A DNA stretch of 64,000 nt from a virus (IMGVR_UViG_3300022902_000004:190268-254267), one strand, 5' to 3'; counted from the first letter of the stretch, positions 19,081 to 50,368 are shown. Notes: generated by a model from the sequence alone, not told the origin. Numbers and translations are program-made.

Positions 19081-19569
19081 ATGAGAAACTACTTACAGGT
19101 TGACTCAGACATGATATACCACCAAGTCCTGGTCGAGGAACCTACAACAATTTTTCACTGGTCAAGACGTCCCGGTGATTTTCTCGATGAAAAAACAGGG
19201 ATACTTTCGCCAATGATAATGGAGTGGAGCGGGAATGTCCGTGAATGGTACGAAGGTCTAACCGATACTATTTCTCGTGCATTCTGTGATATGACATCGA
19301 ATCTTCATGGTGATGGGATGGCCCGCGGGATCGTCGTATCACCCCTGGCAGCCACAATAATTGAATTTTCTCTAAGTTTCAGGACGGACATCTCGAGTCC
19401 CAAAATCATTAGTCGTGGCAAATTCGCCATGATTGGGTTCCTTCGCGGGGTGCCGGTTTATGTCATAAACACCAGTGATCATGATATATGCACTTTGTTT
19501 GTCATGGGTTGCGATTTGTGTAAAACCATGAAAGTCGGTCGCGTTTCGATTGCCCATATGAATGCCTAG
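19081..19569 (+). CDS. Hypothetical protein (isolated plus-strand gene)
   Basis: A strong SD (AAAGGAG) lies 7 nt upstream of the ATG. The 162-aa ORF fills the gap between minus-strand genes. Confidence 0.55.
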   Translation: MRNYLQVDSDMIYHQVLVEEPTTIFHWSRRPGDFLDEKTGILSPMIMEWSGNVREWYEGLTDTISRAFCDMTSNLHGDGMARGIVVSPLAATIIEFSLSFRTDISSPKIISRGKFAMIGFLRGVPVYVINTSDHDICTLFVMGCDLCKTMKVGRVSIAHMNA

Positions 19570-20447
19570 AACAACTGAACATACCCTTTACAATGCTCGG
19601 TGTTTGCGAACTCGCAGAACTTGCATGAGTATCTGTTCTTCAGCGTGAACTCGGCTTCCATGTTTTTCAACATGTTGATGACCATCTTTTCGGCTTTCGC
19701 CATGACCTTCGGTCCTGATGATACTTCAACCATCGACACTGATTTACCTGGCTTTGCTTCACGGTGGAGAAGAACGTATGCTGTTTTCACATCCCGAGAT
19801 TTCTTTCCTGTGTGGCGCATCCAGAAATGCTTGTAAAGAATGACCTGAGCTAATGTCAAGAAGTCTTGCTTCTTTCTTCGCTGCCAACCATATCGTCCTG
19901 CTGTTTTCCAGTCGATGATGACATGTTTTCCATTGGGAAGTTCAATCACGCAATCGATGTAGCCCTTGAAGTGACCGGTCGTCTTCAAAACGTCAGCATA
20001 CAACATATGTTCCGCTTCGACAGTCTTCCACCCAGGAAATGTCTTTTCCATGAAATCAGGGAGCTGTGTTAGGGCATTCGTTGCCGATTCCAGCCAACCT
20101 GGAAGTTCGACATGTTTGTATTTCCAACCTTGAGCCCTGGCTCTCGCCGTTTGTTCCTTGATCCATTCCTCATCATCAAATCCTCGTTTCTTCCAGGCTT
20201 CCTTGATTTTCTCATGGACTGCCGGGATGTCTATCGTTCTTGTATTGAGGAAACTCTCGCCACCATCGTGGACGATTGTACCATAATCCAAATATGGGCT
20301 TATGATTTCCTCATCTGATGCTGGAATATACAAAAGGTCATGGCGCCATCCACAACCTGCCCAAGTACTAACTTCAGAATATGAGACGTGTGGTTTTCCG
20401 TTTCTTAGCAACGGAAGTGAGGGATCGATTGTTACTTTCTTTTTCAT
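19566..20447 (-). CDS. Cas4/RecB-family PD-(D/E)XK nuclease with Fe-S cysteines
   Basis: Carries GYIDCVIEL and IIDWKTAG (D..E.K / DYKTG-type) nuclease motifs. An N-terminal Cys (AGCGW) plus a C-terminal CKFC…EHC cluster matches the Cas4-like 4-Cys arrangement. Confidence 0.6.
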   Translation of the reverse strand: MKKKVTIDPSLPLLRNGKPHVSYSEVSTWAGCGWRHDLLYIPASDEEIISPYLDYGTIVHDGGESFLNTRTIDIPAVHEKIKEAWKKRGFDDEEWIKEQTARARAQGWKYKHVELPGWLESATNALTQLPDFMEKTFPGWKTVEAEHMLYADVLKTTGHFKGYIDCVIELPNGKHVIIDWKTAGRYGWQRRKKQDFLTLAQVILYKHFWMRHTGKKSRDVKTAYVLLHREAKPGKSVSMVEVSSGPKVMAKAEKMVINMLKNMEAEFTLKNRYSCKFCEFANTEHCKGYVQLF

Positions 20448-20481: not shown

Positions 20482-20847
20482 TTAGTCGCCTTTTTGAATC
20501 CTGTAACTGTCAGAATCGAAGTGCTGTGTTGAAAATTCGTACAACTCAGTGTCCTCGAGGGCAATCATTTGGTGTCGCATCCCTCTCGTCACGTGGAAGT
20601 TATCGCCCTTTTCCAGGATGACCTCGCAGGCATCTTCAACCTCGTCCCATTCCGGCGCAGAATAAAGTACCTTGATTCTCCCGGATTGTACAAAGAAAAC
20701 TTCATCCTTGAGCTTGTGATAATGCCAGGAACATCGTTTCCCTTTCACAAAAAACAGGAGCTTGCCGCAATACTCTTCGCAGTTCACAATCCATTTTTCA
20801 AAGCCCCAGCCTTTTGGGACAAATTTAATCGGCAAAGAATTCGGCAT
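20482..20847 (-). CDS. Small cupin-fold protein (sugar ketoisomerase/epimerase-like)
   Basis: 121 aa with a KGWGFEKW…SWHYH…E.FFV.SG cupin metal-binding pattern. It lies next to sugar-nucleotide genes. Confidence 0.5.
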   Translation of the reverse strand: MPNSLPIKFVPKGWGFEKWIVNCEEYCGKLLFFVKGKRCSWHYHKLKDEVFFVQSGRIKVLYSAPEWDEVEDACEVILEKGDNFHVTRGMRHQMIALEDTELYEFSTQHFDSDSYRIQKGD

Positions 20848-21145
20848 CTTTCATTCCTTTATCGTCAATGTATATGTCACCACTCGGTTTTCCTAGTCGG
20901 AGATCATGAAATTTGACTCCCCAGTCGTACAGTTGAGCCAGTGTCAAATCATAAAACTGCGTTATTGCAGCTACTTGGTTATCTTTGTTGCGGCCCATAC
21001 CTCGGGCCGTATAGATAGTAATGCTATGGCCGGATTCAAACAGCTTATTGACTCGTGCAATTCGGTCCCTGTGTGGACGCGCTACATTGTAATCACCGTC
21101 AGTTGTCGTGCACAGTGTTCCGTCCAGATCAAATACGTAGCGCAT
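20825..21145 (-). CDS. Small HAD-superfamily phosphatase (GmhB-like role)
   Basis: FDLDGTL motif I and GKPSGDIYIDD motif IV. Adjacent to the RfaE-like kinase and nucleotidyltransferase. Confidence 0.6.
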   Translation of the reverse strand: MRYVFDLDGTLCTTTDGDYNVARPHRDRIARVNKLFESGHSITIYTARGMGRNKDNQVAAITQFYDLTLAQLYDWGVKFHDLRLGKPSGDIYIDDKGMKDAEFFAD

Positions 21146-21527
21146 TTATTGCCTCCGTTGATGAATGCGTTCCTATCCTAGGAAAATAGTCGACCTCAGC
21201 CAAATGTGAGCCAACAACCCGCCTTCCGTCATACTCGCTGCCGACAACGATTTTGTCGGCTTTCCAGTTTTCGATTTCTTGGCACATTTCTTCATCCGAG
21301 CCGTAACACACAACGACATCAACACATTCCAATGCACGAAGCATTCTCATCCTGTTCACAAGATCATTGTGGGGTCGGAGGGGTCCCTTGTTTTCAGAGA
21401 CCCTCTCATCGGTATCGACACCAACGACAAGAAATTGGCCTTTGCTTTTTGCGTATTCCAACATTGCAAGATGTCCCACGTGCAAAATATCGAAGCATCC
21501 ATTTGTCCAAATGACGGTTGGGCTCAT
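21129..21527 (-). CDS. Cytidylyltransferase-family nucleotidyltransferase (HldE/RfaE domain II-like)
   Basis: TNGCFDILHVGHL is the HxGH nucleotidyltransferase signature. Size (132 aa) matches the stand-alone RfaE domain II. Confidence 0.7.
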   Translation of the reverse strand: MSPTVIWTNGCFDILHVGHLAMLEYAKSKGQFLVVGVDTDERVSENKGPLRPHNDLVNRMRMLRALECVDVVVCYGSDEEMCQEIENWKADKIVVGSEYDGRRVVGSHLAEVDYFPRIGTHSSTEAINALRI

Positions 21528-22264
21528 ATCGTTGATACCCCTTTTTTCTGGACAACGATTGATGCAATTTCATTTCCCTTTTCAATAGCAGCCTGAACAT
21601 CACCTGTTTCAGTAAATGTCTTTGCGAATGCAGAAACGAATGAGTCACCAGCACCAGCAGAATCAACTCGATTCACCGTTGGCGTTGGATACACAGTTCC
21701 TCGATACATTGCACCACGAGGGCCCAATGTCACGATTAGATTTTCAATGATGTCTTCACCAAGAACTGATTTTGTACGTGCATACTCCGTCTCATTGATT
21801 TTGATGAATGAGATTGAATATGCCCATTCACCAAGAATCTTTTTTGTATCGAGGATTGAGATTTTCGATTTGCGCCCGATGAAGTTGATTTGATTCGTCG
21901 ACAACCAGCCTTTGTCATAATCAGATATCACGACGCAATCATATTTCGAGAAATCAATACCTCGAAGCAGGGCGTTACCATACTTTTCATCGTTCTCGTC
22001 GACCCTGAGGAACATATGATTCGATTTCGTTTCTACGTAACGAATCTTCTTGATACACTCGGCATTATCATTTGTGTATAGCTCCGTATCGCAACCCAAA
22101 ACTCTCATGTTGGCGGCAACATTTGAAGCCATCCCAAGGTTCTCAACACTTTTGATGCTATTGAAAACAGGAACTGGCGACTCCGGGGCGAGTCGCACTA
22201 CGTTGCCGTATACGAAGACGTCCAAACATGATTCACCAATTACTAAAAATTTCATAGCACACAC
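21524..22264 (-). CDS. PfkB-family sugar kinase (HldE/RfaE domain I-like)
   Basis: PfkB signature GAGDSFVSAF near the C-terminus. It overlaps the nucleotidyltransferase gene by 4 nt. Confidence 0.7.
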   Translation of the reverse strand: MCAMKFLVIGESCLDVFVYGNVVRLAPESPVPVFNSIKSVENLGMASNVAANMRVLGCDTELYTNDNAECIKKIRYVETKSNHMFLRVDENDEKYGNALLRGIDFSKYDCVVISDYDKGWLSTNQINFIGRKSKISILDTKKILGEWAYSISFIKINETEYARTKSVLGEDIIENLIVTLGPRGAMYRGTVYPTPTVNRVDSAGAGDSFVSAFAKTFTETGDVQAAIEKGNEIASIVVQKKGVSTI

Positions 22265-23442
22265 TTGACAAGGTCGCAGATTCTATCGATGTCTTCCGTA
22301 CCTAACTCTGGATTGTTGGGTAAAAAGAACCCACAATCATGAATCTCATCTGAAACGGGATGACTAAACTCACCGTATTCCGCCTTCCAGAATGGGTGCT
22401 TTCCTAAGTTTCCTGCGCTGAAGATTCTTGTTTCGACGCCGGCAACCCGTAGCATCTTCACAATTTTCGTTCGTTGTGCCTTGTCTTTTGCCAGGAGACC
22501 AAACGAGATTGAGACCGGCTTGTTGGTTCCCCAATCTTGAAACTTGAAAGTTCCTCGTAGGTTTTCCGCGTAGCGCTTGTGATTTCTCTCTCTGGCCTCT
22601 GATACCCAAGGTGCTTTCTTGACCTGGTCGATTCCAATGAATGCCTGTAAGTCTGTCGCCCTCAAGTTGAATCCTGGAACGAAGAATGTGAACGGTTTGT
22701 GGAAGTCATCAACTCCATTTTCTTCAACCAACCCGTCGTACACTGACTCATCAAGATCCTTTCCCCAGCCGTGACTTCGGAGCATGAGCAACATTTGGTA
22801 TGTTTCGAAATCGTCGGTGTTCACCATACCACCTTCAATTGTCGCCAACTGATGCCCAAAGTAGAATGAGAAGCTCGACATTTTGCCAACCGTTCCCACC
22901 TTCTTGCCGTTTGCATATTCAGCACCGAGAGCTGCGCAGCCGTCCTCAAGCAAAGTGAAGTTGTATTTCTTTGAGAGGGCATGCAATCTTTCAGCGTCAT
23001 GCGGGATACCGAGAACCTGCACAAAAATTACCGTTGCCGGATCCTCTTCGATACACACTTTTTCGAGGTCGTCGAGATCGATTCCATACGTTTTTGCATC
23101 GGCGCCAACCATGATCGGGTCGAAACCAAATTGCATGAATGGTGCGATTGTTGTGACCCATCCCACCGATGGGACGACGACCTTCATGTTTCTTGGCTTT
23201 GCAACCTTTGCGGCGTACGCCATCAGCAGGTTTGCAGAAGAGCCGGAGTTGCAAAACACAGAGTACTTCGTACCGATGTATTTCGCCCATGCTTTCTCAA
23301 ACTTTACCGTTAGTTCGCCCTTTGTCAGGCGAGGATATGTTTTCAGCCAATTGATAAGATTATCGATATCGTGATCGCTAATCGTATCTTTTGCCAGTGG
23401 GTACTCAATTTTATTCATCAATTTTCTCCATCCAATATTCAA
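22252..23442 (-). CDS. DegT/DnrJ/EryC1-family PLP/PMP enzyme, ColD-like 3-dehydratase
   Basis: Fold-type I sugar aminotransferase motif SFSFYFGHQLATIEGG. A His occupies the position of the Schiff-base Lys, as in GDP-4-keto-6-deoxymannose 3-dehydratase ColD and the E1 dehydratases. Gmd lies directly downstream. Confidence 0.6.
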   Translation of the reverse strand: MNIGWRKLMNKIEYPLAKDTISDHDIDNLINWLKTYPRLTKGELTVKFEKAWAKYIGTKYSVFCNSGSSANLLMAYAAKVAKPRNMKVVVPSVGWVTTIAPFMQFGFDPIMVGADAKTYGIDLDDLEKVCIEEDPATVIFVQVLGIPHDAERLHALSKKYNFTLLEDGCAALGAEYANGKKVGTVGKMSSFSFYFGHQLATIEGGMVNTDDFETYQMLLMLRSHGWGKDLDESVYDGLVEENGVDDFHKPFTFFVPGFNLRATDLQAFIGIDQVKKAPWVSEARERNHKRYAENLRGTFKFQDWGTNKPVSISFGLLAKDKAQRTKIVKMLRVAGVETRIFSAGNLGKHPFWKAEYGEFSHPVSDEIHDCGFFLPNNPELGTEDIDRICDLVKCVL

Positions 23443-24409
23443 TCATTTCGTCCAACATAGATTCGAATGTGTACTCAAATTGAAAGTTCGTTTTTGTTGT
23501 TGGGCCTATTTTTCCTAGAAGCTTTGAGGCATCACCTTTTAGGTTGTGCAACTCAAGTGGTCTCACGAACCGTGGGTCAACAACCACATGGTCATTATAA
23601 TTCAAATCTAGGTAATTGAAAACATATTCGCAAAGATGCCTAACTGAATTTGAACGACCGGTGGCCATGACAAAATCGTCACACTCATCCAACTGCAAAA
23701 TCGCATGCATCGCCCTAACATAATCTTTGGCATGACCCCAGTCCCGTGTTGCATCTAGGTTTCCTAAACGGAGCTCTTTCATCAAACCTTTTTTGATTCG
23801 AACTGCACCGATGACGACCTTATTCGTCACGAAATTGGCACCTCGGCGGGGTGACTCATGATTGAACAGAATACCGTTCGACAGAAACATGTTGTACGAT
23901 TCCCTATAGCACCTCATCAATGAGTAGGCCATTTGTTTTGCACAACCGTACGGGCTGACAGGAGACATTGGTGTTGTCTCTCTTTGGAATCCATCCGGAT
24001 CAATGTTGTTGCCAAACATTTCAGAGCTGCTTGCCTGATAAATCTTGGCCGAGGGATAACAGAGTCGCGTCGCTTCCAGCAAATTCATCACGCCCAAACC
24101 AGTTGCCTGGATTGTATACAACGGCTGGTCGAAACTTACCTTCACATGACTTTGAGCCGCCAGATTGTAAATCTCATGAGGTTTCACATCCATCACAACA
24201 CGAACCAACGATGCCATGTCTGTCACATCGGCAAACTGCAGGTTTTCTTTGATTTTTGCGTAAGTTCCGTCGTTCAGACGAGCAGATTGGTTTTCTGCGA
24301 TTGAGTTTCGTTTGAGTGTACCATGAACATTGTACCCCAATTCGAGGAGATATTCGGCAAGATAACTTCCATCTTGCCCGTTGATCCCCGTCACGAGTGC
24401 GCGTTTCAT
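23411..24409 (-). CDS. gmd: GDP-mannose 4,6-dehydratase
   Basis: MKRALVTGINGQDGSYLAEYLLELGYNVHG, GILFNHESPRRG and RDWGHAKDYV are near-identical to bacterial Gmd. Confidence 0.85.
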   Translation of the reverse strand: MKRALVTGINGQDGSYLAEYLLELGYNVHGTLKRNSIAENQSARLNDGTYAKIKENLQFADVTDMASLVRVVMDVKPHEIYNLAAQSHVKVSFDQPLYTIQATGLGVMNLLEATRLCYPSAKIYQASSSEMFGNNIDPDGFQRETTPMSPVSPYGCAKQMAYSLMRCYRESYNMFLSNGILFNHESPRRGANFVTNKVVIGAVRIKKGLMKELRLGNLDATRDWGHAKDYVRAMHAILQLDECDDFVMATGRSNSVRHLCEYVFNYLDLNYNDHVVVDPRFVRPLELHNLKGDASKLLGKIGPTTKTNFQFEYTFESMLDEMIEYWMEKIDE

Positions 24410-25332
24410 TACTTCCTCGCATGCTCAAAGTTTTCTTCAAACCATTTTGAAGTGTTAACAATTGCCCAAACGATTGGTGTCCGTACAAATGTTGGGAACA
24501 AATCATCAAAGTATTCACTTACCGTTTGGCGACGGAGTTGCCCGTTCGGCTTTGACGTATCCCAATCAACACTAACATTGAAATATTCTGCCACCGTCTC
24601 AACCAGCTTCCTGATTTCCAGTTCATCGCCTGACACAATCAGTTTCTGCGGCAAATCATCCACCGACGCTAGCAATTCGAAGCATGCTTCCGCCAAATCA
24701 TCAACGTAGATAAATTCACGACGAGGAGAGCCATCGCCCCATGCTTGCAAACTGGTTCCATTTTCTCTTGCCAAGTATGCCTTATGAATCAAGGATGGCA
24801 CGACATGCCCATGGGCAAAGTCAAAGTTGTCATTCGGGCCGAAGATGTTTCCTGGGATGATCGAGCAGTAGTTTACGCCGTATTGCTTCCTGTAGGCCTC
24901 AATTTGGACATCAACCATTCTCTTGGCATGAGCGTAAGCTCCATGTGCCGGGAAAGGAGGACCATCGTGTAGGACCGATTCTGTCATCGTTTCCACATCA
25001 GGAAAGGCACATACAGATGAAAACGCAATCAACTTTTCGACGCCATGCTTGTAGGCCTCATCAATGATCATCGTGTTCATCATGACATTGTCAAAAAATT
25101 GCTGCGCTGGCGTTTCAAGGTTTTTCGCAATCCCTCCGACACGGGCAGCAGTATGGATGACATAATTTGGCTTATAACAATCAAACATGTCTTTGACACC
25201 ATCTTGCTCTGTCAGATCCCAATTTTCCCGGGCCGCGAAGATTACATCAAATTGAGAATGATAGCCAGCTAACCTTCTGATAGCATTGCCGACCAACCCA
25301 TTACCGCCTGTGACCAATACCAATTTTTTCAT
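24409..25332 (-). CDS. GDP-L-fucose synthase-like epimerase/reductase (Fcl/ColC-like)
   Basis: SDR with VGNAIRR, HTAARVGG and a YAHAK catalytic motif. Collinear with E. coli Fcl. Confidence 0.75.
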   Translation of the reverse strand: MKKLVLVTGGNGLVGNAIRRLAGYHSQFDVIFAARENWDLTEQDGVKDMFDCYKPNYVIHTAARVGGIAKNLETPAQQFFDNVMMNTMIIDEAYKHGVEKLIAFSSVCAFPDVETMTESVLHDGPPFPAHGAYAHAKRMVDVQIEAYRKQYGVNYCSIIPGNIFGPNDNFDFAHGHVVPSLIHKAYLARENGTSLQAWGDGSPRREFIYVDDLAEACFELLASVDDLPQKLIVSGDELEIRKLVETVAEYFNVSVDWDTSKPNGQLRRQTVSEYFDDLFPTFVRTPIVWAIVNTSKWFEENFEHARK

Positions 25333-25964
25333 AATTTCTTTGCCTCAACATTCAACGACATAAGCAGCCCGGTCGATTTATCCATGTGGGGCAAATATGC
25401 CTGACTGTAATCGTCCACATAAAAATGGTCAGTCTTTCGCCAATCGTATCCTTTCACATCACTAAATCCGGCCTGTTCAAGATCATATTTCAATGTATCG
25501 AAGTCCCACCCGTGAAAATGAAAGTCAAAATCGTATTTTTGGCCGCCAAAAAAGAAAGCCTGGACCTCCGCGAGGTTGCCGGTTGCCAAGTATCGATCAC
25601 ACGCAGCACGCATGTTTGGAACGGCCAAACGCAATGTTCCACCTTTACCCAAAGCTTCAAACCAGTCGGCAAGAATGTCCTTGTATGTTGTCGGGGCAAA
25701 TTTTGATGCCTTCAACGGGAAATGTTCCAAAACATGGGCAGCATAAATCACTTTCGCATCAGAAAACTTGGTCGATAACTTTGAAATGTCACAAACAACA
25801 TCGGGTTGAACGTCTGGACGAATATCCACGTTCGTGTAGCCCCACATTTTCCGGTCGCCGCAACCGACGTTGATTTTGCAGCCATTTTTCTTCAAAATAC
25901 TCATTATCCAAATCTCCTGGCCCATTTTTCTGGTTGGCGTATCCAATTGTCGTACCGTATGCAA
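25329..25964 (-). CDS. Class I SAM-dependent methyltransferase
   Basis: Motif I INVGCGDRK and a …VLEHF… motif. The real start is probably the ATG near 25904, a 4-nt overlap with the upstream stop. Confidence 0.6.
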   Translation of the reverse strand: MHTVRQLDTPTRKMGQEIWIMSILKKNGCKINVGCGDRKMWGYTNVDIRPDVQPDVVCDISKLSTKFSDAKVIYAAHVLEHFPLKASKFAPTTYKDILADWFEALGKGGTLRLAVPNMRAACDRYLATGNLAEVQAFFFGGQKYDFDFHFHGWDFDTLKYDLEQAGFSDVKGYDWRKTDHFYVDDYSQAYLPHMDKSTGLLMSLNVEAKKL

Positions 25965-26728
25965 ACTGGACGATGATGTGACGTAAACGCGTGCCCATAA
26001 ATGCTATTGAACAGCGGTAAATCGTTCTGATAGTATGCCGCAATGATTGGGCTATTATTTTGGTCTCTGCCGGGTTCCCAATCGTGCTTTGTTACAAAAT
26101 TGTCTGACGTTATCACTTTTGAACCACTTCTTTGGGCCCGAAAGGCAAAATCGTGCAAATTCAAGTTGAAATGTTCGAACCTGCAGTCCAAACCGCCCAA
26201 ACCTCTGAACCTTTCCACACTCATCATAAACATTAGGCAAATCTTCCAATCTGGATGAACTCCGGGTATCCGGAGACTGTCATGGTGGTGTGCATTCCAA
26301 TAACTTGGCTTGAAATCGGCCAAATTGGCATTGAAATTCTGCCCTTCGGTATATTTCAATGCAATGATGTCTTTTTCGCTGTCATTTTGTTCAAGAAGGT
26401 CAATGCAATTGCTAAATTCCTTCTCGTTGATGATTACATCGTCTGAGGCAGCGGCGATGTACTTTCCTTGTGCAAGCGTGCTTGCTTTTTGAAGACATCG
26501 TGAAGGGCAACCAAAATCCTGCGAATATTGAACATTTGACAGCCCACGTAAATCGGCAGGCATCGGATATGGCGAAACAAACACAATTTCAAATGGGTGA
26601 CGATCGCATGATAGCAACATTTGTTTATAAACGTTGCCCCAGTTATCATTTCTGATACCTGAGACCAAAAGCGACAAAACTGGCTTCACTTGAACCTCCG
26701 AGTCCATACAGTTTCGACATTTTTCCAA
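25904..26728 (-). CDS. GT-A-like glycosyltransferase, tandem paralog 1
   Basis: Shares ~270-aa collinear similarity with 26686..27489 and 29280..30095 (…ERF..LGG(L/F)D..FE…HDFAFR.Q..G…). Confidence 0.5.
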   Translation of the reverse strand: MEKCRNCMDSEVQVKPVLSLLVSGIRNDNWGNVYKQMLLSCDRHPFEIVFVSPYPMPADLRGLSNVQYSQDFGCPSRCLQKASTLAQGKYIAAASDDVIINEKEFSNCIDLLEQNDSEKDIIALKYTEGQNFNANLADFKPSYWNAHHHDSLRIPGVHPDWKICLMFMMSVERFRGLGGLDCRFEHFNLNLHDFAFRAQRSGSKVITSDNFVTKHDWEPGRDQNNSPIIAAYYQNDLPLFNSIYGHAFTSHHRPVCIRYDNWIRQPEKWARRFG

Positions 26729-27489
26729 TTCATTATCTCGGCGGCAATCGATTCATTCTTCGGCCACTCATTATTTCTGTATTTCGCGTGGAGAAGTGGC
26801 TCATCGTGGAATGTTTGACAATTATGAATCGGTTCGTGGTCGCCTGTTGTTCCTGGCATGTGGTCGCAAATCATGCATGCGATTCCTGACATCTTTACGA
26901 TGGCGCCGGCGGCCTGGGCACGGATTGCAAGGTCAGTTTGTGATGACCAGGTCCCTTCGAATTCAGAGTTGAACCCTCCGAGGGCTTCCAAGAACGAACG
27001 GTGCATAAACGCGACGTTGAAGAGCCACCAATCTGGTGGGAGGTACGGTGATGCCGCAGGACCGGCTGCAATCTTGAAATATGAGTCGTCATGTTGCCGA
27101 TCCCTGTCCACACTTCCAACTTGACCTTCCTGGTATTTTGCAATTACCACATTTAGTGGATTTCCGCCCATTTCTCGAAGGATTTTCATGTTTGCATCGA
27201 CAGAACCAGGCAGCATGATTGCATCATCAGCCTGCCATGTCACAATCTCGCCTTCAGCGACGAGAAGTGCAATATTTTGGGCCCGAGTTGGGTGTCCAAA
27301 ATCTCGTACGTACTTTATGTTTCGATATTGCAGCAATTCTTCCGGAAGTGGATTAGGACCGACCACAATTAGCTCAAACTGAAGCGATGTCGACTCACAT
27401 AGCGATTTGTAAAAGCCTGGAAGGCGTTCTGGTCTGATACTCGGCAAAATTACCGATAATTCAGGCTTTTTGTGTTCTGACATATTCAA
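26686..27489 (-). CDS. GT-A-like glycosyltransferase, tandem paralog 2
   Basis: Paralog of 25904..26728 (…SVILPSIRPERL…ELIVVGP…ADD…LGGFNSEFEG…). Confidence 0.5.
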   Translation of the reverse strand: MNMSEHKKPELSVILPSIRPERLPGFYKSLCESTSLQFELIVVGPNPLPEELLQYRNIKYVRDFGHPTRAQNIALLVAEGEIVTWQADDAIMLPGSVDANMKILREMGGNPLNVVIAKYQEGQVGSVDRDRQHDDSYFKIAAGPAASPYLPPDWWLFNVAFMHRSFLEALGGFNSEFEGTWSSQTDLAIRAQAAGAIVKMSGIACMICDHMPGTTGDHEPIHNCQTFHDEPLLHAKYRNNEWPKNESIAAEIMNWKNVETVWTRRFK

Positions 27490-28471
27490 TTACCTCCCTT
27501 ACTGATTCTCGCAACGAAATGTCCGCTGTAAAGCCCAATACATCCGTTGCTTTTTGAACGTCTGGGACCCTCTTCTGTACATCATAGTCAAATGGCTCAT
27601 CATGTTCAAAAAGTAGCGGCCTTGGATCGCCCAATTCTTCCCAAACAACTGTCGCGAGCTCTTTTACTGTTGTTGGTTGTCTCGTTGATATGTTGAAATC
27701 TTCGTTTTCGGCAGCCTGTGACTCAATGGCTACCCGAATTCCTCTTGCGATGTCTTTTCCGTTGGTGTAGCAACGAACCTGGTTTCCCTGGCCTAGCAAA
27801 CGTAGCGGATATTGACCTTTGACAACCTTGTTGATTAGATCAGGCAAAACATGACTCATCATCATCTCAACATTGCCACTTGTGACCACTTCTTCGCCCA
27901 GGGCTTTGTCTTCTCCAACACCGACACAATTGAATGGCCGAATAATCGTGTAGGGAAGGTTGTATTGCTCATTGGCACCCTTGCAAAAGTACTCGCAAGC
28001 CAATTTTTGGAACCCGTAAGTGCTCAAAGGTGGTGGAGTTGTGGCAATTACACTTTCGGGTGTTGGAAACACATCAGTCGATTCGAAAACCATGCTGCTT
28101 GACAGAACCACGATACGCTTGAGCTGTTTTGTTTTGTGCAAGTGGATTGCTGTGTCGAAAATCGACGCCATAATCCTTTCGTTCGTTGCCAGCAGGTCAT
28201 ACGCATATTTGTGGAAATAAGAAATGCCGCCAATCATTGCTGCCATGCCGACAATCACATCGACATCGCCAAATCTGGCCAAATCTCGTTGTTCGAGACC
28301 GATGACATCCTCTTCGTAGAATGTGAAACAGGGATGATCATCGTGTGCCCGAACAATTTTCCCATATTTTGAGTAATTGTCAATTCCTATGACATTGTGA
28401 CCAGCTTTTAGTAGCTCATTGCAAAGGTAACTTCCAATGAAACCTTGCGAACCGGTAATCATGATATTCAT
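27461..28471 (-). CDS. NAD-dependent sugar epimerase/dehydratase (SDR)
   Basis: MNIMITGSQGFIGSYL Rossmann motif and a YxxxK segment (YGFQKLACE). Size fits a UDP-glucuronate decarboxylase or 4-epimerase. Confidence 0.7.
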   Translation of the reverse strand: MNIMITGSQGFIGSYLCNELLKAGHNVIGIDNYSKYGKIVRAHDDHPCFTFYEEDVIGLEQRDLARFGDVDVIVGMAAMIGGISYFHKYAYDLLATNERIMASIFDTAIHLHKTKQLKRIVVLSSSMVFESTDVFPTPESVIATTPPPLSTYGFQKLACEYFCKGANEQYNLPYTIIRPFNCVGVGEDKALGEEVVTSGNVEMMMSHVLPDLINKVVKGQYPLRLLGQGNQVRCYTNGKDIARGIRVAIESQAAENEDFNISTRQPTTVKELATVVWEELGDPRPLLFEHDEPFDYDVQKRVPDVQKATDVLGFTADISLRESVREVIEYVRTQKA

Positions 28472-29271
28472 TTTAGTCGCATTTCTCCGAACACAGTTGT
28501 TTTGTATTTTGTATTTTCATAGTCAATACTCCGAAATAATCCTGCATTGACATTATGCTTTTCTTGTAGTCTGACAATGGCTTTGACATCTTTTGGAAGG
28601 CAAACGCCTCCGTAACCTCTAAAGTTTTCGTTCACGTCGAGGTATTGGTCTGGAACGGTTCCCATTTTGATGAACGCCGCTTTTACATCATTGTATGAAG
28701 CATCCACTGCTTGGCATGTTTCATAAAATTCATTTGCGAATATGACGCGCATGGCGTTGAAGATATTGGAATAGTACTTTACCATCTCGGCCTCGGTCAA
28801 TCCCATTCTTACAATTTGCTTCGGGTAATTTCCATGAAGTTTCTTGATGAACTTGAATGTTTTCTTGTCTTCACATCCGATTGCCAACAGCAAATGATTC
28901 TCGACGAAGTCTGAGGTTGCACATCTTTCCCTTAGGAACTCTGGCACAAAACAGATGTTCATTCCATACCTTTCTCTAAGGCGGCTGGTAGTCCCTGGTT
29001 CAACCGTAGACTTTATGACAATGATTCCACCATACTTGTGCTTTCGGAGCCTCTGGATTGTATCCTCGACCACAGAAACATCACACGTGCCATCTTCCAA
29101 CTGGTCAGTTGGGACACTTATGAAAACAATTGATGTACTTAGGACATCTTTCAGTTTTGAACCATCTTTTATGTCATAATGGACGACGGTGTGTCCTAAT
29201 TTTTCGAACCCAAACTTGCAGGCCAAACCCACTGTTCCCAATCCTATTATTCCGACTGTTTGCTTTTTCAA
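28468..29271 (-). CDS. UDP-glucose/GDP-mannose dehydrogenase-family protein lacking the C-terminal nucleotide-binding domain
   Basis: N-terminal GIIGLGTVGL NAD fold and the catalytic GGVCLPKD Cys motif. Only 267 aa (complete enzymes are ~390-450 aa). Its stop overlaps the next gene's start. Confidence 0.5.
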   Translation of the reverse strand: MKKQTVGIIGLGTVGLACKFGFEKLGHTVVHYDIKDGSKLKDVLSTSIVFISVPTDQLEDGTCDVSVVEDTIQRLRKHKYGGIIVIKSTVEPGTTSRLRERYGMNICFVPEFLRERCATSDFVENHLLLAIGCEDKKTFKFIKKLHGNYPKQIVRMGLTEAEMVKYYSNIFNAMRVIFANEFYETCQAVDASYNDVKAAFIKMGTVPDQYLDVNENFRGYGGVCLPKDVKAIVRLQEKHNVNAGLFRSIDYENTKYKTTVFGEMRLK

Positions 29272-29279
29272 TTTACCCT

Positions 29280-30095
29280 CTAATCGTTGTTGAGCATTTC
29301 TTCGTAGGTTGTTGGTGTTTTACCACCGAACCTGCGTTCCCATCTCGGCGGCGACTGTTTCCAATTATCGAATGAAATTGGTATACGATCAAATGCAGCC
29401 ATCGGCGATTGATACATTTCATGAAAAATTGGAGCATCATGAAAAATTTGTGCATTATGAATCGGCCCATGGTCAATTGTTTCATTCGGATAATGCGTGC
29501 AGTTTATTACTTCATGTGGCGAATGATAAATCTTCCCGCCGGCGGCTTGCAAGCGAAATGCAAAATCATGAAGGGGGTGATTCAAATATTCGAACTGTGC
29601 ATCGAACCCTCCAAGTTCAACAAATCGCTCGCGATCAATAAGGAAATGAAGGGATGTGCGCCATCCCTTCCCAACGCCTGGCAACTGTAACTCTGCGCTT
29701 GACCATGCTCTCCAAAAATCGAGCGGTAATGCTGCACCGCTATAACCCGGGCCTTCCCTATATCGCATGTTTATCATGTCGAGTTTTGAGCATGTAGCGT
29801 CATATAATGTAACAGCCGATTCAATTGAACCAGGATAAAAAAAGCCATCGTCAACGGTATGATACAGAAGCCGGCCGCGAGTGTTGGCAGCGGCAATCTG
29901 TGCACATCGTGTTGGGTTTCCAAAATCTTTGATGACCCGGACGCACTCAACGTTTTTAAGATTGTCAGGCACATCAAATGGGCTCACAATTACAATTTCA
30001 AAACTATACTTTCCGCAAGCTGCAACCGCCGTGCTATACATTTGCTCCCAAAAGTGCGTCCTGATACCTGGCAAGAAAAATGAAACATCAATCAT
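29280..30095 (-). CDS. GT-A-like glycosyltransferase, tandem paralog 3
   Basis: …FEIVIVSPFD…TVDD…RERFVELGGFDAQFEYLNHPLHDFAFRLQAAGG… collinear with paralogs 1 and 2. Confidence 0.5.
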   Translation of the reverse strand: MIDVSFFLPGIRTHFWEQMYSTAVAACGKYSFEIVIVSPFDVPDNLKNVECVRVIKDFGNPTRCAQIAAANTRGRLLYHTVDDGFFYPGSIESAVTLYDATCSKLDMINMRYREGPGYSGAALPLDFWRAWSSAELQLPGVGKGWRTSLHFLIDRERFVELGGFDAQFEYLNHPLHDFAFRLQAAGGKIYHSPHEVINCTHYPNETIDHGPIHNAQIFHDAPIFHEMYQSPMAAFDRIPISFDNWKQSPPRWERRFGGKTPTTYEEMLNND

Positions 30096-31119
30096 TTAGA
30101 ACTCCCACAAAAAATGAATAGTTTGCCATATTTTCATAATCAATAATTTCCTTGCTCAGAAACATATTTTGGGAAAGGAACGCCCGGAGTCTTTCTGGAT
30201 CATTATGCTTTCCTGAGTCATCATACACAGCCTGATTATGCAAAAATACAGAATTTATTTCTTCGTATCCAAATCCGGATTTCCATGCTTCAGGGTTAGA
30301 AAGTATCTTGCGCATGTCTAGGCCCCCAAGCAGGTTGTTCGATGGGTCTTGCCTCAGCCCAACATGACTAAATCCCGACGATGCGCCGTCGATTCCCCTG
30401 TCATGTTCAACAATCGAATCTTTAAGAATTGCCCAGCGCTTTCCGACAGAGGCAGCAAAAAACGTGAATGTTGATTCTGTGCAATACGCCGCAAAAATGT
30501 CGGGCTGCAGCCTCCCGTCAAACCCGTCGAATATGGCTTGGCTAAAAATATGAATATGGCTGTTACAAGCTTTGCCAACTGGAATCACGTGATTTTCATT
30601 CGTCACAAAACCCTTGAAACCCAACCATGCTTCGAAGCCGTTATCGTTTGAAGCTTGGATTGACAGGATTCCGTAATCATTCTTGACCAGCTCATTATAT
30701 CCTTTTGATAATACATCTGTCTGATCTGCGAAGTTCATTCCGGAATCAATGTAAACATATGCTGCGAAGTTTGTGCCATGTTGTCTCACCGCTTCTAGCG
30801 CCGCAAAATTACACGAAATATTAACCGGAACAACAGAATCTAAAAAACAGTAAGATATTCTGTCACCGAATGTGCCTTTTACTTTCTGTCTTGTCAACTG
30901 CGTATTACAGCAACTAGACATTACCAAATGAATGTTAGCGTCTTGTCGTAGTATCGAATCTATACTTTTTATGTACCAATCACTGTTTTCTTTTCCTGAC
31001 AACCCGCATGTATTGTATATCACAAGAAGTTTTTCATTTTTCATTATGGAAGTCGCCCCACTCAACAAGCACTGTCGATTTGCCGTCCTGTCTTTCGTAT
31101 GCAGTCTTATATGCGTCAA
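30088..31119 (-). CDS. Hypothetical protein (possible glycosyltransferase-like)
   Basis: 343 aa. The likely start is an internal ATG near 31044 (MKNEKLLVIYNTCG…). N-terminal Rossmann-like beta-alpha pattern. Confidence 0.35.
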   Translation of the reverse strand: MTHIRLHTKDRTANRQCLLSGATSIMKNEKLLVIYNTCGLSGKENSDWYIKSIDSILRQDANIHLVMSSCCNTQLTRQKVKGTFGDRISYCFLDSVVPVNISCNFAALEAVRQHGTNFAAYVYIDSGMNFADQTDVLSKGYNELVKNDYGILSIQASNDNGFEAWLGFKGFVTNENHVIPVGKACNSHIHIFSQAIFDGFDGRLQPDIFAAYCTESTFTFFAASVGKRWAILKDSIVEHDRGIDGASSGFSHVGLRQDPSNNLLGGLDMRKILSNPEAWKSGFGYEEINSVFLHNQAVYDDSGKHNDPERLRAFLSQNMFLSKEIIDYENMANYSFFVGVLND

Positions 31120-31582
31120 AAATTTGTTCTGGTGTGTCGAGTCTTATTATGTCTGTGTTAGTTAACATCATGCGATACGCGTCTGTAAAATCACCGATGT
31201 GCTGATGTTGTGGATGAAGGGGTCGTTCCGATCCAATCCCAACCCTGATGATGCACTTTGGTGCATAACGGCCCGCAGAAAAAGCCTGCAGTTTATCTAA
31301 GTGATTAACGAGCTGGTTTGTTGCAAGCAATAAAAAATTCCACCTTGGATATATCGAAACAGGAACTGAACCATCGACGGCCATCCCAATTGTGATTCCC
31401 ATTTGCATTTCCTCCGACACCGGCATTTCTATCTTTTTGTTATCAGGAACATCAATTAATGTTCCTGTCATCGATGTTCCTGGTGATGCCACCGCTTGAC
31501 CAATAAAAACCGTATCGGACTGCGAACCCAACCACGTCATGGCCCGTGTTAACTCGTCTCGATATTTCATTGATTTAGTCAA
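31034..31582 (-). CDS. E1-beta/transketolase pyrimidine-binding-domain protein (TPP enzyme small subunit, pair B)
   Basis: 182 aa. …VFIGQAVASPGTSMTGTL… resembles the 2-oxoacid dehydrogenase E1-beta N-domain. 4-nt overlap with the E1-alpha-like gene upstream. Confidence 0.5.
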   Translation of the reverse strand: MTKSMKYRDELTRAMTWLGSQSDTVFIGQAVASPGTSMTGTLIDVPDNKKIEMPVSEEMQMGITIGMAVDGSVPVSIYPRWNFLLLATNQLVNHLDKLQAFSAGRYAPKCIIRVGIGSERPLHPQHQHIGDFTDAYRMMLTNTDIIRLDTPEQIFDAYKTAYERQDGKSTVLVEWGDFHNEK

Positions 31583-32253
31583 AACTGGACTCGCTTGCCG
31601 GCGCCGGCATGTGGGTATTTAATTAAATTATATGCATAATAACGTACATGTTTATCATTTCTGTTTGCATACGTTGGTGTGTACATTCCCCAAGCCTTTT
31701 TTGTGTCTGTGCAAACTGACTTTTGATTGTCTTCAACAATGTATGTTATCGGAAGATCAAAGTTTGTAGCATATTTTATACATTCATGCGCTATTCCTGT
31801 TTCACTTGTCATGTCGCCAATAAAACACCAAACATGCTCACTTCCTTCACGAAGTTTAATATTTAATGCAGTGCCTAGTGCTATTGGTATAGTTCCAGCA
31901 ACAATTCCAGAGCACATAATCTTGTGCGATGAATAACACAATGAAATTGAGCGGCCTGCGATAATATCACGCATAAGATCGGCTGGATCGACACCCTTTA
32001 ATAAACAATGATAATGACTCCTCCAGCTAGAAAAAATCCAATCTTTATGTTTTACATCACTAAAAATGTCAAGTAATTGATCTTCATTTCCATTATGAAG
32101 ATGTATAGGTGCTAAAATATTTGATGCATTAAATGATTCCGCGACTTTATTCTCAAATTCAATTAATTCTTTTTTCGATAGCATTGTTTTTATCCTGTAA
32201 AGTCGCAATAACATGTTTTGTAATATCAGCGGCACTCGGTGGTAAATTGTCAA
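31579..32253 (-). CDS. E1-alpha-like thiamine-diphosphate-binding protein (pair B)
   Basis: …HKIMCSGIVAGTIPIALGTA…VWCFIGDMTSETGIAHECIKYATNFDLPITYIVEDNQ… matches the GDG-x25-N TPP motif of E1-alpha/transketolase. The likely start is the ATG near 32184. Confidence 0.6.
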   Translation of the reverse strand: MTIYHRVPLILQNMLLRLYRIKTMLSKKELIEFENKVAESFNASNILAPIHLHNGNEDQLLDIFSDVKHKDWIFSSWRSHYHCLLKGVDPADLMRDIIAGRSISLCYSSHKIMCSGIVAGTIPIALGTALNIKLREGSEHVWCFIGDMTSETGIAHECIKYATNFDLPITYIVEDNQKSVCTDTKKAWGMYTPTYANRNDKHVRYYAYNLIKYPHAGAGKRVQF

Positions 32254-33106
32254 CTGCAGGATGAAATCCTGCAGTTTTGTCAGCTAGGCCCAGCACGCTC
32301 ATTGATGCATGTGTAATTGCCATCATGTCGAAAGCCAAATTTTTTGCAATGCCGTCGCGATAATCATCATCAATGACAACTCCGCGGCCAGCGGCTGATA
32401 AATCGTTTAATACATCACGTGATGGTTCAAAGGGTTTGATTTGCCAAATATGACTTACGGCCGCCTTAATCCCTAGGCACAAAAGTCGCCTTGACGCTTC
32501 GATTGCAGCGAATCGCGTGATAGATATTGGGAACAAAATAATATCCGGATTGTCAAAAATGACGTCATCCAAATCATCAGTGTTGTCGTATGAACCTCGA
32601 TGTTCAGATACATAATACACATCATCGTCGTCCATAAACATGTTATATGTTGCTGTGTATTCAGACGATGACATTGGAGCATATATTTTCACACCTGGCA
32701 TCCGATAGTATAACGAATGATGTGAAGAACCGGCGACTGGGCCAATTCCGCCTTCCATGGCTATTGATCTTATGAACATCGGGCATGGTCTATTCCAAAT
32801 TTCTTTAGATTTGCATGCGTAATTAATAATAATGGGTGCATTAAACCAGTTAAAACCTTGATATCGAATTACATACATTGGCCGTTTTCCAGCTAAGGCA
32901 GCACCGACGACAAATCCACTGCCGGCGACGTCAGCCATTGGAAGCTCCACCATACCGTCTTCTTCATATAATTCTGGTAACGTACCGCCTACCCAGCCTA
33001 CAGCCGTTAAACACTGGCCCATTGCAACTCCATCATTGTTCAAAAGATGTAATTGTACTGTGTTTTTTATTGTATTTCTAAGTGTTTTTGGCATTTTCCC
33101 AAACAT
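32159..33106 (-). CDS. E1-beta-like TPP enzyme subunit (pair A)
   Basis: …ELPMADVAGSGFVVGAALAGKRPMYVIRYQGFNWFNAPIIINYACK… matches the E1-beta Pyr domain. 315 aa, so it includes the C-terminal domain. Confidence 0.6.
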   Translation of the reverse strand: MFGKMPKTLRNTIKNTVQLHLLNNDGVAMGQCLTAVGWVGGTLPELYEEDGMVELPMADVAGSGFVVGAALAGKRPMYVIRYQGFNWFNAPIIINYACKSKEIWNRPCPMFIRSIAMEGGIGPVAGSSHHSLYYRMPGVKIYAPMSSSEYTATYNMFMDDDDVYYVSEHRGSYDNTDDLDDVIFDNPDIILFPISITRFAAIEASRRLLCLGIKAAVSHIWQIKPFEPSRDVLNDLSAAGRGVVIDDDYRDGIAKNLAFDMMAITHASMSVLGLADKTAGFHPAVDNLPPSAADITKHVIATLQDKNNAIEKRIN

Positions 33107-34469
33107 CCTTTACAAAACGTGCTGCAGTTGTAATCCGGCTAGCACCAAATTTCTTCAAAAATTGATCTTGTCGATCAAATGTAGTAGGATCATCAATACC
33201 TGCTCCGGCATGCCAAAACTTTCTATGTGTTTTAACATTTAGAAGTGCAGGTTTCGATAAATCAAGCTTTGAAAGAGTTTCCCAAAGTTGGGTCGGGTCA
33301 TCTGTCACATTGCATGATTGGAGACCAAATGATTTTGCTATATCACTAATATCCCAGCTGCGACGTACTTTTTTCTCAGTTAATATTGAAAAATTATTAT
33401 CTTCAACAATGAATAATATTGGTAACCCTTTCGTTGCTGCCCATCCCAAAGAAGCCAAAAAATAATCTTCTTCAGCAGCTGCATCACCGGCGAAACACAG
33501 CGTAAATATCCTATTAGTAAAACACATGCCTGTAGCGATAGGGGCTTGTGAACCCATAAGCCCGTCATGACCGTATATCTGCTTTTCTTTTGAATGAATA
33601 GATGCTGAGCCGCCCATACCTCCGGCGCACCCATTTTTATGCCCAAGCAATTCTAGGACTAATTTTTCAGGATCACCACCGAATGAAAGATATGTCGAAT
33701 GACCTCGATGTTGAATAAAAATCTGCCTTTTTGTAGGACCATGATGATCTAAAAATACAGAAAGTGTTGCGGCGATGTATTCTTGGCCAGCTGATAAATA
33801 CGTCGGTATACTAATCGTTTTATTTTTTAATTGATTAAATGCATATTCTTCGAATGCACGACTTGTTGCAGCAAGTTCAAATATTTTTAATTCTTGTTCA
33901 TTAGTCAATTTCTTGGTTTGTAATTTTCTATTTATTGCCGGTAATCCTGTATTGCCAAACATGTTTGTATAATCAAAAACCATTGCCGTATTCACAACAG
34001 GCACACCAATTGCAGAAACCTCAGCTAAGTATTTTGTATCATCATCAAAAAAAACTGCTTTTTGAGTTTTCGCTATTAGCGGAAAATGCTCCGCCTTATT
34101 CTGCGTTTTATATAAAAGTATTCTATCGCCGTTAAATAAATGCGTTAGACCAAATGTCGACAATAACATAACTGACGGTTGGTTTGTGTTATGTAATCCA
34201 TGGACGGCTCCGCCTGACAAATATGAAACAACTTTTTTATTACTATGAAGAAATTCTAGCATATCTCGCACGCCGATTCTAAGCTTACAAATATTGCCAA
34301 CGTCATCGATGATTGTGTCAGTTGTTTTTTCAGTTAACGCGTTGACATTATGAATGTGGTATGGTGGAAGTGTCTGTTTCGCCCAAATTGGTCTACCGGT
34401 AGGATCGACAATATCCCATAAAGTTCTGTCTAGATCGAATACGAAATGCTCAAAAATATTAAAGTTCAT
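33078..34469 (-). CDS. HAD-phosphatase domain fused to E1-alpha-like TPP-binding domain (pair A)
   Basis: N-terminal FDLDRTLWD and FFDDD HAD motifs. C-terminal …YLSAGQEYIAATL…HRGHS…GCAGGMGGSASIH…GSQAPIATGM…CFAGDAAAEEDYFLASLGWAATKGLPILFIVEDNN… is a classic E1-alpha (pyruvate/acetoin dehydrogenase) signature. Confidence 0.6.
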   Translation of the reverse strand: MNFNIFEHFVFDLDRTLWDIVDPTGRPIWAKQTLPPYHIHNVNALTEKTTDTIIDDVGNICKLRIGVRDMLEFLHSNKKVVSYLSGGAVHGLHNTNQPSVMLLSTFGLTHLFNGDRILLYKTQNKAEHFPLIAKTQKAVFFDDDTKYLAEVSAIGVPVVNTAMVFDYTNMFGNTGLPAINRKLQTKKLTNEQELKIFELAATSRAFEEYAFNQLKNKTISIPTYLSAGQEYIAATLSVFLDHHGPTKRQIFIQHRGHSTYLSFGGDPEKLVLELLGHKNGCAGGMGGSASIHSKEKQIYGHDGLMGSQAPIATGMCFTNRIFTLCFAGDAAAEEDYFLASLGWAATKGLPILFIVEDNNFSILTEKKVRRSWDISDIAKSFGLQSCNVTDDPTQLWETLSKLDLSKPALLNVKTHRKFWHAGAGIDDPTTFDRQDQFLKKFGASRITTAARFVKDVWENAKNT

Positions 34470-35656: not shown

Positions 35657-35658
35657 AT

Positions 35659-50142: not shown

Positions 50143-50368
50143 GACCTTTTTGATTTTCCAATGAGTTGGCGGCCCGACTGATGCTTGCGACGATGTTATG
50201 AAATCCCAGGATTATGTCATTCTTGACTTTCTTGTCCTCGGCTTCCAATGCGAATCGAACGAACCCGCACAGCGCACCCAAAATTAGCAAGATACATCCT
50301 AGCCACGCTTCATGGGTGTATAAATACGCCCCACAAATTACAAGGACCTCTGACATTTTGCCTTTCAT
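50117..50368 (-). CDS. Small membrane protein
   Basis: 83 aa with one long hydrophobic helix. Confidence 0.35.
   Translation of the reverse strand: MKGKMSEVLVICGAYLYTHEAWLGCILLILGALCGFVRFALEAEDKKVKNDIILGFHNIVASISRAANSLENQKGHEKQQTVH

Follow-up and report, generated by a model that had tools for sequence, protein, structure and literature searches.

A putative ColD-type 3-deoxygenation pathway for a GDP-hexose in the sugar island of a phage

A 64,000-nucleotide stretch of viral DNA (IMGVR_UViG_3300022902_000004:190268-254267, analysed as a whole and called the window hereafter) contains seven minus-strand open reading frames (ORFs) that follow one another from position 25332 to 20482 with touching or overlapping ends and encode, in this order, an Fcl-like epimerase/reductase, a Gmd-type dehydratase, a DegT-family protein, a PfkB kinase, a nucleotidyltransferase, a HAD phosphatase and a cupin. 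The subject of this analysis is the first three genes, referred to as the trio, whose products are predicted to form a nucleotide-sugar pathway; the other four are referred to as the kinase block. The Fcl-like and Gmd genes share a single base (24409), and the stop of Gmd and the ATG of DegT overlap by 8 nucleotides within ATGAATAA. A preliminary description of the window had placed the DegT gene at 22252-23442; this ORF exists, with TTG 23442 as its longest-ORF start (396 amino acids, aa), but the true start is probably ATG 23418, which gives a protein of 388 aa identical to the database protein P0001, present on metagenomic contigs of up to 318 kb.

The DegT protein matches PF01041 over its full length (residues 25-392, 224 bits against a cut-off of 19.8), and among all PDB sequences it scores best with E. 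coli ColD (1.5e-55), followed by Yersinia E1 (2.4e-35) and by sugar aminotransferases, including perosamine synthases, at 1e-30 or weaker. The motif SFSFYFGHQLATIEGG, encoded at 22828-22875 (-), includes the catalytic histidine, which aligns in HMMER with His188 of E. coli ColD, the position altered in the mutants deposited in the PDB as 2r0t (H188K) and 3b8x (H188N), and which also aligns with His220 of Yersinia E1, the first histidine of its 'AHH'. In a MAFFT alignment of 139 sequences this column is occupied by His in all viral (53/53) and all cellular (78/78) relatives and by Lys in all five distant viral DegT controls sited next to a Gmd. With an invariant His in 131 relatives and Lys in the five controls, the registration of the residue is not an artefact. 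HMMER, the MAFFT column and the PDB alignments therefore agree with the preliminary description in that a His stands in place of the Lys that would bind pyridoxal 5'-phosphate; a Lys was looked for at the Schiff-base column of the alignment, and His was found there.

The Cys-rich insertion of E1 is absent from the window DegT, which has the Cys-free SHGWGKDLDESV at that place, similar to AHGWTRNLPKKN of ColD; with this insertion, the carrier of the [2Fe-2S] cluster in E1, missing, the protein is of the ColD type according to the published criteria for dehydratase types (PMC8987622). The iron-sulfur mechanism of the E1/SpnQ type was ruled out, the insertion being absent and the aligned stretch being without Cys, and no E3-like reductase was found among those proteins of the surrounding sugar island that were covered by Pfam scans. 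In a neighbour-joining tree (no bootstrap) the subfamily of the window DegT is sister to another viral ColD-type clade, followed by the protein of the cultured Synechococcus phage ACG-2014f and then by E. coli ColD, with E1 apart. The protein thus scores better against ColD than against the aminotransferases and falls on the ColD side of the ColD/E1 split, and the clustering check named in the preliminary description came out in its favour. No NCBIfam equivalog was identified for DegT (the best models, RfbH with 196 bits and PseC with 186 bits, are both far below cut-off). The comparisons confirm, at the level of prediction, that DegT is a His-type 3-dehydratase of the ColD type and not of the E1/SpnQ type. 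In the JGI annotation the window DegT is called 'CDP-4-dehydro-6-deoxyglucose reductase, E1', and even E. coli ColD, the biochemistry of which is characterised, appears in NCBI records as 'DegT/DnrJ/EryC1/StrS family aminotransferase'. Since ColD and its relatives are labelled as aminotransferases or as E1, the database annotation hides the 3-dehydratase class.

The Gmd protein matches PF16363 (355 bits) and, in the PDB, the plant, human, amoebal and bacterial GDP-mannose 4,6-dehydratases (1.5e-84 to 2e-75), while its score with the GDP-heptose 4,6-dehydratase of C. jejuni (7us5) is 2e-26. Its translation contains ASSSEMFG, YGCAK and NHESPRRG, with Thr replaced by Ser, and it is 63-69% identical to a Gmd clade present in at least 195 IMG/VR stretches. 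The earlier term 'near-canonical' is right as to the type of enzyme but slightly generous, as the score against TIGR01472 is 355 bits with a cut-off of 415. The Fcl-like protein belongs to the family of the GDP-4-keto-6-deoxymannose 3,5-epimerase/4-reductases (GMER) and GDP-fucose synthases (GFS), with the human GDP-fucose synthase (4e-69) ahead of E. coli GMER (1.7e-43) and of the heptose enzymes of C. jejuni (2e-25) in the PDB, and it scores 217 bits against NF047922 (cut-off 500). Its Ser/Cys, Tyr-x3-Lys and His motifs align with those of human GFS, and all catalytic residues of GMER are kept.

On the basis of these similarities, we consider it somewhat probable (about 0.55) that the trio forms a ColD-type 3-deoxygenation pathway for a GDP-hexose, with GDP-L-colitose as the simplest product. 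Gmd would oxidise and dehydrate GDP-mannose, which we infer to be the substrate and which would most likely be derived from the host, to GDP-4-keto-6-deoxymannose. DegT would then bind pyridoxamine 5'-phosphate and form a ketimine at C4 of the sugar, and its His would act as the base in the expulsion of the C3 hydroxyl, with release of GDP-4-keto-3,6-dideoxymannose and ammonia; glutamate would restore the cofactor, and neither an iron-sulfur cluster nor a partner reductase would be needed, as in the mechanism of ColD (PMC8987622). Finally, the Fcl-like enzyme would epimerise C5 and reduce C4, presumably giving GDP-L-colitose or a close stereoisomer, and the dideoxy sugar would serve as one building block for a phage glycan island of about 27 kb. 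The choice of a hexose is supported by Gmd, which resembles canonical GDP-mannose dehydratases (1e-84) far more than the heptose dehydratase (2e-26). Sequence does not tell a hexose from a heptose as the substrate of DegT, because the C3-dehydratases of C. jejuni, which are 62-67% identical to ColD and belong to a clade whose characterised members are 62-80% identical to one another, act on GDP-6-deoxy-4-keto-heptose (PMC10440746). A C-branched or heptose-derived product is also possible, because the genes that neighbour this DegT subfamily, i.e. thiamine-diphosphate (ThDP) enzymes, a B12-binding radical-SAM (S-adenosylmethionine) enzyme and the kinase and nucleotidyltransferase, are all present in the island; their conservation suggests that the 4-keto-3,6-dideoxy intermediate is modified further. 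Of the GDP-L-colitose route proposed in the preliminary description, the translational coupling of the trio and the His-type DegT stand, but colitose as the product is not established.

The strongest comparative support for the order Gmd, DegT, Fcl comes from other phages. IMG/VR was sampled with the window DegT (54 viral loci, 49-86% identity) and with the window Gmd (80 loci retained from at least 195 stretches); neighbourhood counts refer to genes within 8 kb of the ColD-like gene, and, as they come from few lineages, they are not independent. A ColD-type His-DegT lies directly beside Gmd in 29 of the 80 loci sampled with Gmd, and 21 of the 80 have Gmd, ColD-type DegT and Fcl-like genes together, mostly as Fcl-ColD-Gmd in the examples printed. 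Sister loci of the same phage lineage have Fcl-Gmd alone at that spot, as if the dehydratase had been placed as a module into a pair of the fucose type. In about 10 close relatives of the window phage the arrangement Fcl-Gmd-(methyltransferase)-ColD is kept. In ACG-2014f the genes gp223-gp225 encode a contiguous Gmd-Fcl-DegT(His) set, with 44% (Gmd), 39% (Fcl-like) and 35% (His-DegT, motif FSFYFGHH) identity to the window proteins. The preliminary remark that a phage making a dideoxyhexose is unusual is thus overstated. Literature that pairs colitose, ColD or 3-dehydrase with phage was found to comprise host and receptor papers only; a phage-encoded 3-dehydratase pathway seems to be undescribed in the literature searched, yet not rare in sequence data, and the cassette of the window seems, as far as its sequence can tell, to be a divergent form of a known pathway that recurs in phages.

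Other His-DegT types were also encountered among the sampled loci. An E1-like His-DegT with a Cys-rich iron-sulfur insertion (41-44% identity to Yersinia E1) is present in the viral loci L147, L152 and L196, beside RmlB-like and ALS/YerE-like genes, and a third His-DegT clade (motif TTSFYASHVITAGGMG) lies beside RmlB-like and E1ab genes in the IMG/VR loci L155, L162 and L173. Several distinct 3-deoxygenation pathways seem to circulate in phages.

A number of observations weigh against the GDP-L-colitose type of pathway. DegT is only 33% identical to E. coli ColD and is placed by its sequence in a subfamily separate from the characterised ColD clade. The Fcl-like protein, to which the preliminary description had assigned the role of ColC, is indeed a GMER/GFS-family reductase beside Gmd, but it is only 30% identical to ColC of E. 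coli O55 and appears from its similarities to be an enzyme of the fucose-synthase type and no ColC orthologue: ColC is closer to bacterial GMER (7e-67) than to human GFS (9e-36), and the window protein shows the reverse pattern. No residue separates ColC from Fcl function, and the Fcl-like enzyme could equally produce GDP-fucose straight from the product of Gmd. Among the 54 related viral loci the kinase block is found near the ColD-like gene in 38-45 (contiguous with it where the gene order was printed) and a true Gmd in 10, and in some relatives an RmlB-like dehydratase follows the cupin. Of the cellular members of the subfamily, only 1 in 80 loci has the gene beside Gmd. The cellular homologues with 55-60% identity come from Nitrospira, Elusimicrobia, Patescibacteria, Acidobacteria and a deltaproteobacterium, and the cluster conserved among them (loci including L074, L077, L089, L101, L114 and L134), which seems to be uncharacterised, comprises His-DegT, an Fcl-like short-chain dehydrogenase/reductase (SDR), a second SDR, a GHMP kinase (best NCBIfam model HddA), an NTP-transferase (ManC/HddC-like; both below the curated cut-offs), a B12-radical-SAM enzyme and either E1ab or an ALS/YerE-like ThDP enzyme. 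This cluster probably makes an undescribed branched deoxysugar.

The locations of the genes are listed in Table 1.

Table 1. Genes of the window discussed in the text, with their positions, strand and main characteristics
Feature	Position	Strand	Remarks
Fcl-like GDP-4-keto-6-deoxymannose 3,5-epimerase/4-reductase (GMER/GFS family)	24409-25332	(-)	307 aa
Gmd, GDP-mannose 4,6-dehydratase, short form	23411-24409	(-)	332 aa
Predicted ColD-type, pyridoxamine 5'-phosphate-dependent NDP-4-keto-6-deoxy-sugar 3-dehydratase (His-type DegT)	22252-23418	(-)	388 aa, ATG 23418
Codon of the catalytic His of DegT	22852-22854	(-)	His197 of the 396-aa ORF = His189 of the 388-aa protein
PfkB kinase	21524-22264	(-)	rfaE_dom_I, 105 bits
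Cytidylyltransferase-family nucleotidyltransferase	21129-21527	(-)	rfaE_dom_II, 98 bits
Small HAD phosphatase	20825-21145	(-)	EcbF/BcbF phosphatase, 39.5 bits
Metal-motif cupin	20482-20847	(-)	Cupin_2, 36 bits
Class-I SAM methyltransferase-like protein	25329-25964	(-)	211 aa
Two thiamine-diphosphate E1 beta/alpha-like pairs	31034-34469	(-)	Transket_pyr and E1_dh Pfam matches
B12-binding radical-SAM enzyme, candidate C-methyltransferase	35659-37182	(-)	Pfam Radical_SAM and B12-binding

The window is evidently phage DNA, judging from a baseplate wedge protein (phrog_219), a gp25-like neighbour, a phage helicase (phrog_2488) and a PrkA/YeaG-like kinase common to jumbo phages. The latter, a serine kinase/AAA protein at 50368-52305 (-), matches phrog_22605 at 4e-129 and has homologues in the Ralstonia jumbo phage RsoM2USA, in Thermus phages and in 600-kb metagenomic megaphages. 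A megablast search with a 5.6-kb region against 50,697 phage records gave no match, i.e. there is no close cultured relative among them, and no tRNA that could hint at the host was found. The sugar island (about 16.5-43 kb) contains many soluble glycosyltransferases and adjoins baseplate and tail genes. It is split by a gene of the PD-(D/E)XK nuclease family (19566-20447 (-)), found also in the relatives L007 and L008, and by a plus-strand ORF of 162 aa (19081-19569), the two being placed between the cupin and two GT4 glycosyltransferases. The G+C content is 0.37-0.39 at 32001-38000 against about 0.45 in the rest of the window, in a segment spanning the second E1ab pair, a DJ-1/PfpI protein, the radical-SAM gene and adjoining genes; this segment may have entered the island on its own.

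Within the kinase block, the PfkB kinase and the nucleotidyltransferase match the two halves of HldE (105 and 98 bits, below cut-off), and the only PDB match of the kinase is the heptose-7-phosphate kinase HldA (4e84, 8e-12). The cupin has a generic Cupin_2 protein as its sole PDB match (E-value 0.008) and no NCBIfam match, and it is a candidate for a mannose-6-phosphate-isomerase-like or FdtA-like ketoisomerase. The block as a whole thus resembles, in sequence, a split HldE/GmhB route of heptose activation with the cupin in place of GmhA, and it may make a second activated sugar or feed the trio. Since characterised HldE-family transferases use ATP or CTP, and Gmd, ColD and Fcl use GDP-sugars, the block and the trio are probably separate modules. 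A phage set of HAD phosphatase/kinase and cytidylyltransferase has been described that supplies heptose for DNA hypermodification (bioRxiv 10.1101/2023.12.21.572611). In one unrelated lineage of phages (L159), too, the kinase block adjoins Fcl-ColD-Gmd.

Upstream of the trio, the methyltransferase-like protein has no Pfam match in the window, and its orthologue in L005 (51% identity) has Methyltransf_11/23; in L022, L027, L029, L033, L045 and L057 the orthologue lies between Gmd and the ColD-like gene. Three proteins of about 270 aa (25904-27489 and 29280-30095 (-)) show no or marginal Pfam similarity, including one weak match to GT2; they look like paralogues by eye, are kept across related islands and probably constitute a new glycosyltransferase-like family. 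Two SDRs are encoded in the island, one at 27461-28471, which scores weakly on any dehydratase model, and one at 37894-38871, known from its Pfam match. Beside the former, a protein of the UDP-glucose/GDP-mannose dehydrogenase family (28468-29271 (-), 267 aa) has the N-terminal and central domains with no match to the C-terminal domain, and it is kept next to this SDR at 49-61% identity in related phages. The two E1ab pairs comprise 31034-31582 with 31579-32253 and 32159-33106 with 33078-34469, the last being an E1 alpha-like protein fused to an N-terminal acid-phosphatase/HAD domain; the DJ-1/PfpI protein (35123-35656) lies near them and the B12-radical-SAM gene. The E1ab pairs and the B12-radical-SAM enzyme suggest C-branching or C-methylation of sugars in the phage.

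As to the use of the sugar, we considered an O-antigen-style export. The Pfam scans of the island yielded no family of flippases, polymerases or initiating transferases, and a simple hydropathy scan of the 42 ORFs at 0.4-50 kb gave at most one hydrophobic segment per ORF, so that no polytopic membrane protein is apparent among them. The sugar may be attached in the cytoplasm to virion proteins or to DNA, or it may be exported by machinery of the host; virion or DNA acceptors are discussed here only as candidates.

Several other explanations of the locus were weighed against the GDP-hexose pathway. That DegT is an ordinary sugar aminotransferase (e.g. a GDP-perosamine synthase) with a mis-registered His is hardly credible: it is a member of the DegT/DnrJ/EryC1 family, and the databases label both it and the true ColD as aminotransferases, but three independent alignments place the His at the Lys column, where the Lys-type viral DegT proteins show Lys, and the E-values of ColD and of perosamine synthases differ by 26 orders of magnitude in favour of ColD. 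This candidate was rejected on both grounds. Less easily dismissed, though still unlikely, is a route in which the product of DegT is mainly a substrate for ThDP-dependent branching at C4 (with a two-carbon or other acyl unit) by the E1ab pairs, perhaps followed by radical-SAM methylation, with a yersiniose-like end product; here the Fcl-like enzyme would make GDP-fucose or GDP-colitose as a side branch or would reduce the branched intermediate. The analysis of neighbourhoods is consistent with such a route. ThDP enzymes occur beside this DegT subfamily in 32/54 viral and 58/80 cellular loci, compared with 2/29 loci of the other viral ColD-type clade and 0/37 Gmd loci that have no His-DegT; the recurrent ones are of three kinds, from two E1ab families and an ALS/YerE-like type. 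A homologue of the B12-radical-SAM enzyme accompanies the ColD-like gene in 19/54 viral and 52/80 cellular loci, and both sorts of enzyme (two E1ab pairs, one B12-radical-SAM protein) are encoded in the island of the window. The product predicted for DegT is exactly the kind of NDP-4-keto-deoxysugar at the C4 of which the pyruvate-dehydrogenase (PDH)-E1-like Plm8/Plm9 and AviB1/B2, and YerE, add two-carbon branches (PMC4802897; PMC9306805). However, 7-11 kb of DNA, glycosyltransferase-like genes included, separate the E1ab genes of the window from the trio, the co-occurrences were counted in a small number of lineages and cannot be treated as independent, and the known examples of branching enzymes use CDP- or dTDP-sugars and not GDP-sugars.

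A distinctly unlikely explanation is that the whole operon makes a 3,6-dideoxy-heptose, as in the capsule of C. jejuni: D-glycero-D-manno-heptose, activated by the cupin, PfkB, HAD and nucleotidyltransferase, would pass in turn through the Gmd-like enzyme (dehydration at C4/C6), DegT (loss of the C3 hydroxyl) and the Fcl-like enzyme (completion of the synthesis). It would account for the seven overlapping genes as a single operon and for the matches of the kinase, nucleotidyltransferase and HAD protein to the HldE halves, to a capsule phosphatase and, in the PDB, to a heptose-7-phosphate kinase; the cellular relatives of DegT sit beside the HddA-best GHMP kinase and ManC/HddC NTP-transferase, which represent the other known route of heptose activation, and the substrate of the C. 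jejuni ColD-clade enzymes (PMC10440746) and the phage module for activated heptose (bioRxiv 10.1101/2023.12.21.572611) are in agreement with it. Nevertheless, Gmd and the Fcl-like protein are far closer to the hexose than to the heptose enzymes (1e-84 vs 2e-26 and 4e-69 vs 2e-25), all matches to heptose families are far below the curated cut-offs, ACG-2014f is without the kinase module in the stretch read, and few of the 21 IMG/VR loci with the trio have this module. Moreover, characterised HldE-type transferases yield ADP-beta-heptose, while Gmd, ColD and Fcl take GDP-alpha-sugars. There is also little chance that Gmd and the Fcl-like enzyme merely form a GDP-L-fucose pair, as in many viruses, and that DegT serves the kinase block on another 4-keto NDP-sugar. 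Fcl-Gmd pairs without DegT are common in related IMG/VR loci, the Fcl-like protein is of the fucose-synthase type, and the constant partner of DegT in the phage lineage is the kinase block, not Gmd; yet Gmd alone, of the island proteins that were scanned, clearly matches a 4,6-dehydratase, the start of DegT overlaps the stop of Gmd, and a different phage lineage has its ColD-type gene as an insertion precisely between Fcl and Gmd. The GDP-hexose pathway with a ColD-type 3-deoxygenation hence remains the reading that we prefer.

A wider picture is possible, albeit doubtful, in which the DegT subfamily, so far uncharacterised and shared by an abundant lineage of large marine phages and by Nitrospira, Elusimicrobia and Patescibacteria, is the entry to a self-contained path: the sugar would be activated by a phage isomerase, kinase, phosphatase and transferase, deoxygenated at positions 3 and 6 with no iron-sulfur reductase, branched or methylated at carbon by the ThDP and B12-radical-SAM enzymes, and attached in the cytoplasm to virion proteins or DNA, not exported as O-antigen. 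3,6-Dideoxyhexoses are rare sugars of high antigenicity that have until now been associated with the O-antigens and capsules of bacteria. Should phages make them routinely, the sugars may decorate virions or phage DNA or remodel the surface of the infected cell, which would bear on the masking of receptors, on superinfection exclusion and on recognition by immune systems and grazers. Labels such as 'aminotransferase' or 'CDP-...-3-dehydrase E1' hide a widespread viral trait.

Comparison with known systems places the locus closest to the GDP-L-colitose pathway (Gmd, ColD/WbdK and ColC/WbdJ of E. coli O55/O111, Yersinia and Vibrio), which has the same three families in adjacent, overlapping genes; in E. 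coli O55 (colitose locus L227) the gene for ColC (307 aa) lies immediately ahead of that for ColD, with an overlap between the two. ColD and the window DegT both have His for the Schiff-base Lys and no iron-sulfur motif, and ColC and the window reductase share all catalytic residues of GMER. The differences concern the low identity (33% to ColD, 30% to ColC), the eukaryote-like, fucose-synthase type of the window reductase, whereas ColC is nearest to bacterial Fcl, and the setting, as the window locus is without manB/manC, wzx and wzy and is carried by a phage in a far larger island. The GDP-3,6-dideoxy-heptose pathway of C. jejuni (HS:5, HS:11) follows the same scheme of 4,6-dehydratase, ColD-type C3-dehydratase and epimerase/reductase, and a heptose-type activation module is likewise present at the window locus. 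However, the C3-dehydratases of C. jejuni are 62-67% identical to ColD, as against 33% for the window DegT, the window Gmd and Fcl-like proteins are only remotely similar to its dehydratase (2e-26) and reductases (2e-25), and the activation module of the window is of the HldE type (beta, ADP), not HddA/HddC. In the Yersinia pathway for CDP-3,6-dideoxyhexoses and yersiniose (E1/E3, YerE/YerF) a His-type DegT also gives a 4-keto-3,6-dideoxy sugar open to ThDP-dependent branching, and ThDP enzymes recur by the DegT subfamily of the window; in contrast to Yersinia, the window has neither the Cys cluster of E1 nor an E3 reductase, the partners of DegT are Gmd and Fcl instead of CDP-glucose enzymes, and the ThDP enzymes are PDH-E1ab-like, not of the YerE type. 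The trio of ACG-2014f, annotated only as two 'nucleotide-sugar epimerases' and an 'aminotransferase', differs from that of the window in its 44/39/35% identity and in having no kinase/transferase module, ThDP or radical-SAM genes nearby, but its gp223-gp225 form the same contiguous set and, like the trio of the window, lie beside glycosyltransferases and a methyltransferase.

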